Shown: positions 30,001 through 33,000 of the stretch, in pieces
How positions within the stretch are numbered: position 1 is the first letter of the stretch
How the letters are laid out: each line of letters opens with the position of its first letter
DNA from: Fervidobacterium sp.
GTDB taxonomy: Bacteria; Thermotogota; Thermotogae; Thermotogales; Fervidobacteriaceae
Direction: 5' to 3'
Length of the DNA stretch: 64,000 bases
Assembly: GCA_049970055.1 (NCBI GenBank)
Contig: JBMFNR010000001.1
Span: forward strand, 231,200-295,199
Made by a program: the position numbers

Positions 30001-33000
30001 ATACGCAAGCATTCTCATGTGAGTTTTCGCCATAACGCAATTCGAAAGGATTTTTTAAAAGTTCGACTTTTTCCATCTGCACATCAATAGTCTTTAAGTT
30101 ATCTCTCATCACTTATCCCCCCACGAACTCTACTTTTCTGCCCTTTATCTTGAATGGTGTATGCAGCAATTTATCGATAATCTGCCAATAGTACTCGTGT
30201 TCAAGTTTGTGGATATGCTCCTCGAGTTCCTCCAAGTTCCAATTATCTTGAACATCTAATGCCTTTTGAAAAATTATAGGCCCAGTATCAACTCCTGCAT
30301 CAACAAAGTGAATAGTTATTCCGGTTACCTTAACACCGTAATTGTAAACTTGTTTTATTGCATCTTTCCCAGGGAATGAGGGTAAAAGCGATGGGTGGAT
30401 GTTTACAATCTTTGGAAAATATTTATCTACCAGCCTTTGAGGGATTATTCTCATAAATCCTGCAAGTACAATGAGATCTGGGTTTATATCATCAATCACG
30501 CGCTCGAAATAGGCATCCCAAGGTTTTTCAAGTTTAACGACCGGTATACTGAATTTATAAGCACGATTAATTGCATAACATGTTCTGTCAACAATAAGAG
30601 CGGATATCTTCGCTTTTAGCTTTCCCTCATTGCAAGATTGTGCGAGTTTTTCAAAGTTGCTACCGCTACCAGACGCACATACAACTATTTTGGGTAATCC
30701 AGATTGAAGCACCCCATGCATACGCCTTTTACCCCGCTTTCTTCGAAAACAGCTTTGTAATTTTCAATGGACAGATAAAAGAGCACATCTGCTCCGACAT
30801 AATCTTGGAGTTTTTCCAAGTCGTTTTGAGAAGCTATTAACTCACTCCTTCTTGATGTGTCAATCCCATAATTGCAAGGACCCAAAACGGGTGGTGAATG
30901 GATACCAACATATACTTTCTTTGCTCCTGCTTCTTTTATCATATCGACTATTACTTTCATAGTGGTTCCTCTTACAATCGAATCGTCGATAAGAATTACC
31001 TCTTTCTTCTCAACTACCGAAGAAAGTGGGGCTAATTTTCTTCTTACAATATTCTGTCTGTCTTTTGGCATGATGAAGCTTCTACCTATATAATGATTTC
31101 TAATAAGCCCGTAATCTAGTGGTATTTTGGATTTTAGACTGTAACCGAGTGCTCCCGAGAAACCACTGTCAAGAACTGGTACAACAACATCGCCAACTAC
31201 TTTATGCTCTTCGAATAACTTCATTCCAAGCTTTTTTCTTACTTCGTGGACATTCACACCATAGAAGTTACTGTCAGGCCTAGCAAAATAAACAAATTCG
31301 AAAGAACAAAATCTATCTTTTTTCTCTGCGAATCTAACAATCTTTGGTTTTTCATCACTTGTAAAAAATACGATCGTACCTGGTTCAATTTCGACAATAT
31401 CCGTACAGCCAACGGATTTCAAAGCGCAATCTTCCGATGCCACTATGTATCCGTTGGCAAATTTTCCATAAAATAGCGGTCGTATACCATACGAATCACG
31501 TGCGGCAGCAAGAAATGTATCGTGCAAAACAACGAGGGAGTAAGCTGTTTTTATACGTGAAAGCGCCCACTGGAGGGAATCTTTTGGATTACCGTACGGT
31601 GCTGTTGAAAAATAATGAATGAAAATCTCAGAATCTAGTGTTGTTGAAAATACGCTACCATTTTCCATTATGAACTTTCTTTTTTCATCGGCATCAACAA
31701 TATTCCCGTTATGGGCAATTGCAACCGTACCTTTGTAAGTGTGAGCGACGAGGGGTTGGATTTCGTGAATCGATCCGTAAGTTGAGTACCTGACATGTCC
31801 GATTGCACAGTTACCTTCAATGAATCTTTCGTCTGTTAGTACATGTTCGACTAATCCTTCTCCTTTAACTTCTCGAAATCCATTTACAACAATTCCTGCA
31901 GACTGCTGACCACGATGCTGAAGTGCCAGCAATATATCATGAACAACATTGTAGGACGCTTCAATATTCCAAGTACCTGCTACTCCACACATATTGTTTC
32001 CCCCCACGGATGATTTGTTCTCTTTTTTTCTTTTTAAAGTAGCAGAGGAACCTCTCGGTCCCTCTGCAAGCTCACTTTACATTTGGTGCAAGTATTTTCA
32101 GTATATCTTCGTTTTTAATACGCAGGTATCCTTCTTGTAACTCTTTGAATGCTATACTCACTGAATATTCGTCTGGTGTGGTCACAAAAGGTTTGGCAAA
32201 ATCATTTATTGCCTCAGCCCTTTTGGCAACAACAACAGGTATAGCATATTTGTAAGGGATTTTTTGGAGTAATTTATCGTATTGAATGACAAGTTTGCTC
32301 AATCTATGCCACCTCCTTATTATTCTTTACTCTTAATTTCAACAAGCTTTTTAACTTTTGAAAGGTACTTTTGTCTCTCGTATTTTAAACGCTCAGCATG
32401 TATAATTGAAGAAAGATTTCGTATAGACTCCTCAAGGTCTTCGTTTATTATAAGATATTCGAATTCGGGAATATACGCTAATTCCTTTTTGGCTGTTTCA
32501 AGTCTTTTTTGGATCTTTTCCTCAGTTTCCGTACCACGCTTTCTCAGACGTTCACTGAGAACTTCGTAACTCGGTGGTGCAACAAATATGAACTTTGCAT
32601 TATTCCAATTTTTTTTTACCGTTAAAGCTCCTTGGACATCTATATCAAGTATGACATCGTAACCTTCATTTATATTTTCCCACACGAAATCGGCGGGAGT
32701 TCCGTAAAAATTATCGTGTACTTGAGCCCATTCAATAAATTTATTCTCATCAATCATCTTTTTGAACTTTTCGTGACTGATAAAGAAGTAATCGACTCCG
32801 TGTATTTCACCAGGTCTTTGCTTACGTGTCGTACATGATACGGAAAAAACAACACGCTCTACACGTTCCAAAACAGATCGTATTATGCTTGTCTTACCAA
32901 CTCCGCTGGGGCCACTTATCACGAAGAGTATACCTTTCGGATGCTGCAAATGCTCAAACGAGCTATCCATGGTTTATTAACCCTTTCTTATCCTTTCAAG

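Follow-up and report, generated by a model that had tools for sequence, protein, structure and literature searches.

In the Fervidobacterium sp. studied here, a small C-rich RNA probably pairs with the translation initiation regions of nucleotide-synthesis genes and represses them, as judged from sequence and its conservation. The window that we analysed is a 64,000-nt stretch (C1:231200-295199) of a genome of 1.87 Mb and 37% G+C (labelled G000), and contains purF and purB together with their predicted target sites. Relatives are referred to by labels for genera (g1-g5), families (f1-f11) and individual genomes (G001, G012 and so on); f2 and f3 are lineages that appear to be ‘Thermotoga-like’ and ‘Pseudothermotoga-like’, respectively.

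In the mechanism that we propose, a trans-acting RNA of about 70 nt, with three unpaired C-rich boxes, a U-rich stretch and an intrinsic terminator, would base-pair with the Shine-Dalgarno (SD) sequence, with the bases just upstream of it or with the first codons of its mRNAs. The predicted targets are purF, both purH halves, purK/purE/purC, purB, guaA, guaB, pyrBI and a nucleobase permease. The sRNA would outcompete the anti-SD of the 16S rRNA, so that entry of the 30S subunit would be occluded and translation initiation blocked; Hfq probably assists, and decay of the mRNA probably follows. This would jointly shut down uptake, the first pyrimidine step (ATCase) and, on the purine side, de novo synthesis and the GMP branch; the trigger is most likely carbon or growth exhaustion, by analogy with a T. 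maritima transcript discussed below.

A motif shared by the start regions of nucleotide-synthesis genes

The motif CGTGGGGG is present in 21 copies on both strands of the genome, where an order-3 Markov model expects 7, and lies in 9 of the 1800 start regions defined by gene calls that we made anew in G000. The nine genes are purF, the C- and N-terminal halves of purH, guaA, a permease of the xanthine/uracil family, pyrBI, purK, an ECF sigma factor and g00442 (NCBIfam and Pfam assignments), and seven of them are nucleotide genes. The first-pass annotation had reported both this count and an enrichment in nucleotide genes, and the two claims are reproduced with the independent gene calls. Against a nucleotide set of 38 genes, built from NCBIfam/Pfam scans, operon context and known sequence motifs, the hypergeometric p value is 3.7e-11. 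As runs of five G are common SD variants in G000 (198 of 1800 start regions), the test restricted to G-run SDs is the fairer one; among these, the motif is found in 7/10 nucleotide genes versus 2/191 others (Fisher p = 1.8e-9).

Other claims of that annotation needed amendment. The genes that it had listed separately as purH and a second AICARFT gene are really two halves of a split PurH, of which the N-terminal one, also preceded by the motif, is encoded on C2 (PRK00881 positions 4-206), and g00442, given as an unknown gene, is a sigma-70 region-2 protein. The statement that the motif marks the first genes of nucleotide units does not hold for the C-terminal half of purH, which is the third gene in purF-N-H-D-M, or for purK, which starts 42 nt downstream of a uracil permease gene. 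Downstream operon genes had been described as free of the motif, which is so for purN, purD and purM but not for purQ, where an internal 12-nt match is found in G000 and likewise in 4/8 g1/g2 relatives. The motif is absent from the start regions of purA, pyrG, pyrD/F/E, upp, gmk, adk and prs of G000, and the regulon is therefore partial.

The purF site, predicted to serve at once as SD and as target (Table 1), forms a duplex of -15.4 kcal/mol with the sRNA at 65 °C versus -5.1 kcal/mol with the anti-SD, and stays single-stranded beside the neighbouring hairpin in folds at 37 and 65 °C.

Table 1. Features of the window; positions count from its first nucleotide.
Feature	Position	Strand	Basis or remark
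G+C-rich terminator-like hairpin between rpoZ and purF	32042..32067	-	folded at 37 and 65 °C; putative function
Target site CCGTGGGGGG, at once the purF Shine-Dalgarno	32000..32009	-	predicted; 10-nt perfect complement to sRNA box 3; 7 nt 5′ of the purF ATG at 31992
purF, amidophosphoribosyltransferase	30685..31992	-	TIGR01134, 426 bits, cut-off 350
purN, no site	30113..30721	-	named by sequence and operon context
Second site TCGTGGGGGGA, within the end of purN and on the Shine-Dalgarno of the C-terminal purH half	30116..30126	-	
purH C-terminal (AICARFT) half of split PurH	29177..30109	-	matches PRK00881 positions 210-510
purD and purM, downstream operon genes, no site	27000..29158	-	named by sequence and operon context
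Weaker site CAGTGGGGGGG, on the purB SD	2450..2460	-	
purB, adenylosuccinate lyase	1152..2441	-	TIGR00928, 494 bits, cut-off 326

The sites are conserved in g1 and g2. Before purF, CGTGGGGG is kept in 14 of the 14 genomes with an intact start (leaving out G007, whose contig begins inside the gene), in agreement with the conservation reported earlier, and before guaA it is kept in 7/7 orthologues, the second guaA of G006 being without it. The form Y-GTGGGGG precedes pyrBI in 7/7 cases and the permease in 6/6, while GTGGGGG precedes the N-terminal half of purH in 5/5 cases, in three of them after a C. At the C-terminal half of purH, the site GTGGGGGG is found in 11/11 g1 relatives and 0/2 g2 genomes; at purB, a 12-nt complement is present in 3/5 g1 relatives and CGTGGGGGG in 2/2 g2 genomes. 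For guaB, all six g1/g2 genomes in which the start is available carry GCCGTGGGG upstream of a separate, ordinary SD. The site before the ECF sigma factor is kept in 3/5 relatives and, in G000, overlaps the end of the upstream gene; whether this sigma factor is a target is uncertain.

A C-rich RNA gene conserved across the Thermotogota

The sRNA gene (C3:133960-134029, about 70 nt, outside the window) carries three C-rich boxes and ends in a terminator. It is intergenic, between flhA (divergent) and mnmE (convergent), is preceded by sigma70-like promoters and terminates in a 6-bp G-C hairpin followed by a T run. Folded at 65 °C, the terminator alone is structured and the three C boxes are open; a U-rich stretch lies ahead of the terminator with its U tail. 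Against the covariance models of Rfam 15, the best scores, for RsaE/RoxS, 6C or any other family, are far under the gathering cut-off.

We searched for the 30-nt core of the sRNA (up to 3 mismatches) in 151 genomes of the phylum and found it in 54, with one copy in 53 and two in one; in 47 of the 54 it is identical letter for letter. A covariance model finds the sRNA in 47 of 79 further genomes, three of these hits being weak (E 3e-4 to 6e-3), which brings the total to 101 of the 133 Thermotogota genomes searched overall, 18 less complete ones being left out. Carriers of the core include Fervidobacterium, Thermosipho, Pseudothermotoga, Kosmotogaceae and other Thermotogota. In 33 of the 47 covariance-model sequences, those that were read, boxes 1 and 2 are nearly invariant and box 3 is missing in most of f10. 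The neighbouring genes change between families and the terminator stem shows two-sided changes in three of its six pairs, as expected of a stand-alone RNA gene. In the fragmented assembly of G007 the sRNA gene was not found, yet a purK site is present there.

The sRNA thus combines the sequence features of a trans-acting base-pairing sRNA, namely a stand-alone gene, a promoter, a terminator and a conserved, unpaired C-rich seed. Its complementarity to initiation regions is conserved beyond chance in g1, g2 and g5, and not in g3, g4, f2 and f3. As for Hfq-type features, G000 encodes Hfq and the U-tailed terminator lies behind a U-rich stretch, both scored as presence only. Hfq is present in 143/151 genomes of the phylum, and because it is nearly universal, even in families without an sRNA match, its co-occurrence with the sRNA is uninformative. 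Upstream of the sRNA lie two conserved (G/T)TAACA boxes, for which matrix scans yield no coherent regulon. Rex- and CIRCE-like readings, judged by the usual consensus sequences, did not fit and were rejected. RsaE/RoxS are under the control of Rex, ResD or SrrA, and control of this type was not found in the sRNA promoter of G000.

A homologue of this RNA appears to be transcribed in T. maritima. Table S5 of PMC3636130 lists the pncRNA RTS_M_934685_934868, a 184-nt transcribed intergenic ncRNA with a mapped start, located in the 340 nt that separate an 855-nt gene from a divergent 930-nt gene. Three g6 loci share exactly this layout, with the sRNA core inside the listed transcript and the end of the terminator stem at its 3′ end; from the flanking genes, the transcript is putatively the homologue of the sRNA. 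Its 5′ end lies 126 nt before the core, so that it is longer than the form predicted for G000. Its expression is reported as 243 FPKM in log phase, 689 under heat, 11438 in carbon-limited late exponential phase and 434 under hydrogen inhibition (PMC3636130), which is a 47-fold rise under carbon limitation relative to log phase. In the text passages and supplements of PMC3636130 available to us, we found no function, family, structure or target for it. The T. maritima pncRNA differs from the sRNA described here in that Thermotoga-like genomes are without purine sites. Together with the promoters and the terminator, this homologue suggests that the sRNA is transcribed in Fervidobacterium sp.

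Most sites overlap the SD or fall within about 10 nt of it, and at 65 °C the computed pairing of sRNA and leader amounts to about -12 to -24 kcal/mol versus about -5 for the canonical anti-SD; the energies given in the first-pass annotation were confirmed, at -11.9 to -19.3 kcal/mol for the sites it named against a genome mean of -6.5 (sd 3.1). The anti-SD is canonical in 5/5 relatives (the G000 assembly is without the 16S 3′ end), and the idea of an altered anti-SD was rejected. A DNA search of the relatives gave an unbiased lead: among the matches listed are 14 that complement the sRNA at its box-3 end perfectly over 18-20 nt, and 12 of these were located, eight at the start or first codons of purK, two before purE and two before the g00442 orthologue. 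In G001 and G012, purE stands directly behind an unrelated gene and the long site lies before purE, and purK of G000 has the same long site with one G-U pair (-23.7 kcal/mol).

The length of such sites is what could speak for a different outcome, in which the pairing is real but the sRNA protects or activates its mRNAs, or in which the long sites (at purK, at purC and behind nusB) titrate the sRNA as sponges. Some sites reach 18-38 nt, which is unusually long, and extend into the terminator stem, and the strongest one in G000 (-29.6 kcal/mol, about 25 nt, spanning boxes 1-2) lies behind nusB, between it and the gene preceding folP; six g1 relatives and one g2 genome share it, and in g3 and g5 it is weak. 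We nevertheless consider such an outcome unlikely, given that most sites lie on the SD or close to it and that a characterised C-rich RNA pairing with SDs, RsaE, blocks initiation (PMC2790875). Repression through occlusion of the initiation region is the outcome that we favour.

Lineage-matched complementarity and seed switching

Four g5 genomes, which are kin and count as one lineage, allow the gene set defined in G000 to be examined out of sample. The g5 sRNA differs from that of G000 at three letters after box 3, and the g5 orthologues are without CGTGGGGG; instead, they are complementary to other segments of the sRNA. In 4/4 genomes, the permease carries a 12-14-nt complement to box 2, and the linker is matched over 12-13 nt by the C-terminal half of purH, in a stretch that spans the GTG start, and over 10-12 nt by guaA and by guaB. 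purF has a bulged match to box 3 (4/4), the complements at purB and pyrBI are 8-9 nt long, and the purE-purC junction has an interrupted complement of about 38 nt bearing g5-specific letters (4/4).

Over the G000-defined genes of g5, the longest perfect complement averages 10.1 nt (n = 28) compared with 5.1 in 70 neighbouring genes; shuffles of the sRNA that preserve its C runs give 6.9 +/- 0.4, and 0/200 reach 10.1. The corresponding means are 9.6 nt in g1 (0/200 shuffles), 8.9 in g2 (2/200) and 8.8 in G000 alone (8/200), where most sites are just 8-10 nt long.

The long sites follow the letters of the RNA of their own lineage, those at purK and purE of g1/g2 bearing the g1 sRNA letters. When RNAs are swapped, pairing at the purC sites of g5 amounts to -32.2 to -36.1 kcal/mol with the RNA of their own genome and to -27.9 to -29.9 with that of G000; for seven g1/g2 purK/purE sites the values are -23.7 to -31.5 with their own RNA and -16.1 to -23.3 with a g5 RNA. 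The own lineage is favoured by about 4-6 kcal/mol in g5 and by about 8-9 in g1/g2. One exception is the purC site of G019, which prefers the RNA of G016 over its own. Beneath the g5 site, 8/9 codons are unchanged, compared with 18/47 upstream. Because the long g1 and g5 sites lie at different genes (purK/purE and the purE-purC junction), they indicate lineage-matched acquisition and not column-by-column compensation. A C-to-U switch of the 8-mer in A-variant genomes is seen at purF, purB and pyrBI of g5; total counts of TGTGGGGG in these genomes (30 and 22 loci read) are not above the reversed control, and we therefore did not use the switch as a statistic.

These data bear on who reads the motif. 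The first-pass annotation had proposed control at the RNA level through the sRNA, a proposal that the g5 test, the switching between boxes and the lineage-specific letters support. It had also raised two worries, that a protein could read the motif and that the gene set was defined after the hits were seen, and both are largely answered. For the first, the orthologues switch between box 3, linker and box 2 and the long sites match the local RNA letters; for the second, the set fixed in G000 holds out of sample in g5, though the 8-mer is lost.

An RNA- or DNA-binding protein that recognises CGUGGGGG, the match to the sRNA being incidental or the sRNA a decoy, is accordingly a very improbable reader. 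In its favour, g1 and g2 keep one short motif amid variable flanks, and a PyrR site (RF00515) lies before purE in 4/4 g5 genomes; by a motif match, G000 presumably encodes PyrR. However, the g5 orthologues have no common motif and are each complementary to a different sRNA segment, and the sites extend exactly along the sRNA complement, following lineage-specific letters. Seed switching and lineage-matched extension are predicted by base pairing and not by a protein that reads one motif, which disfavours such a protein, and since the sRNA carries the complement of the motif and not the motif, it cannot be a same-sequence decoy. Neither the window nor the target loci of G000 yielded a purine riboswitch or a PyrR site in the same scan that detects PyrR sites in g5 and the purine riboswitch (RF00167) before purE or the pur operon in 3/3 f3 genomes.

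That the sites are a mere G-rich SD variant which any C-rich RNA would match, with an enrichment born of a post-hoc gene set, is the least probable explanation and largely refuted: although five-G runs are common, the set was first seen in G000 and the shuffle test there is weak, the split among G-run SDs and the g5 test with C runs fixed contradict it, as do the guaB site lying apart from its SD, the 18-20-nt complements falling on purK and purE, and the ordinary anti-SD.

Extent of the regulon and relation to known systems

The predicted nucleotide regulon is confined to three genera of one family, whereas the sRNA itself is phylum-wide. For the G000-defined nucleotide genes, no complementarity signal was found in g3, g4, f2 and f3, with the permease as the exception: in f3 it has a bulged match to box 3 (5/5), and in g4 a match to box 2. 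The queries used did not detect purF or pyrBI in the four g3 genomes. Among the pur operons of f5, f7, f9 and f10 (14 genomes), 1/120 starts reaches 9 nt compared with 2/55 in the background. As the sRNA is present in other families and the purine signal is absent there, purine control cannot be the conserved role of the sRNA, and the predicted nucleotide control is a lineage-specific use of an older RNA. Pattern searches for ancestral targets in f2, f3 and f9 gave results near control level, with single leads alone.

The sRNA probably has further targets in G000, where eleven non-nucleotide start regions pair more strongly with its single-stranded core than purK, the best nucleotide gene.

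A genome-wide duplex scan also found a sibling RNA at C1:198095-198174, with boxes 1-2, a hairpin and a terminator and no box 3. It is present in 44/151 genomes of the phylum, and its best Rfam scores are far under the cut-off. As a reader of the motif the sibling was rejected, since without box 3 it pairs more weakly with 9/9 nucleotide sites.

More tentatively, and with the balance tipping slightly against it, we suggest that two C-rich sRNAs, old and present throughout the phylum, form the core post-transcriptional system of the Thermotogota, and that one of them was recruited in the Fervidobacteriaceae as master regulator of nucleotide synthesis, replacing a riboswitch or repressor. The regulon would have been wired at least twice in parallel, with the mRNAs evolving towards different segments of a near-constant RNA; duplexes of up to about 38 bp would open the terminator stem and hold at 65-70 °C, and two sigma-type targets may close a feedback loop.

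The proposed mechanism is of a known kind. In RsaE/RoxS of Staphylococcus and Bacillus, as in the sRNA described here, unpaired C-rich boxes pair with the SDs of metabolic mRNAs and block initiation (PMC2790875). The present sRNA differs from them in having no Rfam match, in its phylum, in lacking a 5′ hairpin, in its longer C runs (5-6) and in its predicted regulon, de novo nucleotide synthesis. The 6C RNA of Actinobacteria is likewise phylum-wide and C-rich and forms multiple G-C pairs with many mRNAs (PMC6486639). Its C runs lie in hairpin loops and no chaperone is needed. In contrast, the boxes of the present sRNA are linear and stand before the terminator, the genome encodes Hfq, and Rfam gives no match. 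Purine riboswitches, PyrR attenuation and B. subtilis PurR act on the same genes as the sRNA is predicted to. These systems are cis-acting or protein-based and serve one operon each, whereas the sRNA would link scattered operons in trans.

As far as could be checked, novelty lies in the sRNA family and its phylum, in the nucleotide-synthesis regulon and in the rewiring on the mRNA side. According to a review table, Thermotogae have a single annotated sRNA family (PMC9029176); the T. maritima transcriptome paper likewise emphasises how few ncRNAs there are (PMC3636130). The sRNA is not mentioned in the main text and docx supplement of a screen of 36 Thermosipho africanus intergenic regions (PMC8632094). 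We found no published function or targets for the sRNA in the literature, where it may be listed without a name in supplementary tables of candidates.

The finding provides named candidate clients for the Hfq of Thermotogota, together with precise seeds and targets and with natural variants on which compensatory tests can draw. If our reading is true, a single trans-acting RNA, in place of PurR or riboswitches, would govern de novo purine synthesis in these bacteria, and this would offer a case of a regulon rewired on the mRNA side and of RNA-RNA control at high temperature.

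Predicted promoter of the main RNA and a sibling candidate

Throughout the phylum, one (G/T)TAACA box stands 9-10 nt before the -10 hexamer of the main RNA (the C-rich sRNA candidate with C boxes 1-3), and in several lineages a GGAAC/GAAAC element is found 17-18 nt before a GTAA upstream of the RNA, an arrangement that resembles an ECF-sigma promoter. In the relative G003 (L028), an insertion of about 1 kb, which looks like an IS element, breaks the terminator of this RNA.

A sibling C-rich sRNA candidate shares boxes 1-2 with the main RNA and also has a hairpin and a terminator. 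It was found by pattern search in 44 of 151 phylum genomes; the pattern used gave no match in the Thermotoga-like family f2, and no Rfam family matched the sibling.

Features discussed in the text (C1 and C2, contigs of the genome under study; L, individual loci)
Feature	Location	Strand	Remarks
(G/T)TAACA boxes	L001:3885-3955 and homologues		upstream of main RNA; conserved
Sibling RNA candidate	C1:198095-198174 = L491:1596-1675	+	boxes 1-2, hairpin, terminator
purH, AICARFT half	window 29177-30109		carries site
purH, N-terminal half	C2:38893-40176		fused to ~220 unassigned residues; carries site
12-nt complement inside purQ, 13-nt copies inside purK	C2:269553; L293, L299	-	also in relatives
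17-nt perfect complement to linker and box 2	L298 (G006), L306 (G010)		just before start codon
hfq start	C1:559624		SD is G6 run TGGGGGGA
~25-nt complement to boxes 1-2	C1:539321-539345 = L287:3822-3846	+	strongest in genome
PyrR binding site and attenuator	L541-L544, about 890-1020		upstream of purE; 4/4 g5 genomes

Candidate targets of the main RNA

PurH is split in two genes, both of which carry a main-RNA site. The complement inside purQ is present in the genome under study and in four of eight relatives, and purK of G006 and G010 contains additional internal 13-nt copies. In these same two genomes, the gene behind the 17-nt complement is divergent from gap.

The strongest complement lies between nusB and an unknown gene that itself precedes folP; conserved in genera g1 and g2, it may represent a target connected with folate, or alternatively a sponge. 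In two genera of the Pseudothermotoga-like family f3 (L476, L477), complementarity extends over all three boxes in the leader of a solute-binding-protein-like gene, which stands after an oxidoreductase gene, and this leader is a possible f3 target. As the hfq SD is a G run, the main RNA could also pair weakly with it.

Genes not found and a putative PyrR site in other genera

In the four near-complete g3 genomes (G014, G018, G020, G022), purF and pyrBI gave no match to the queries used, which suggests nucleotide auxotrophy. In genus g5, the predicted PyrR site and attenuator ahead of purE would put a purine operon under PyrR.
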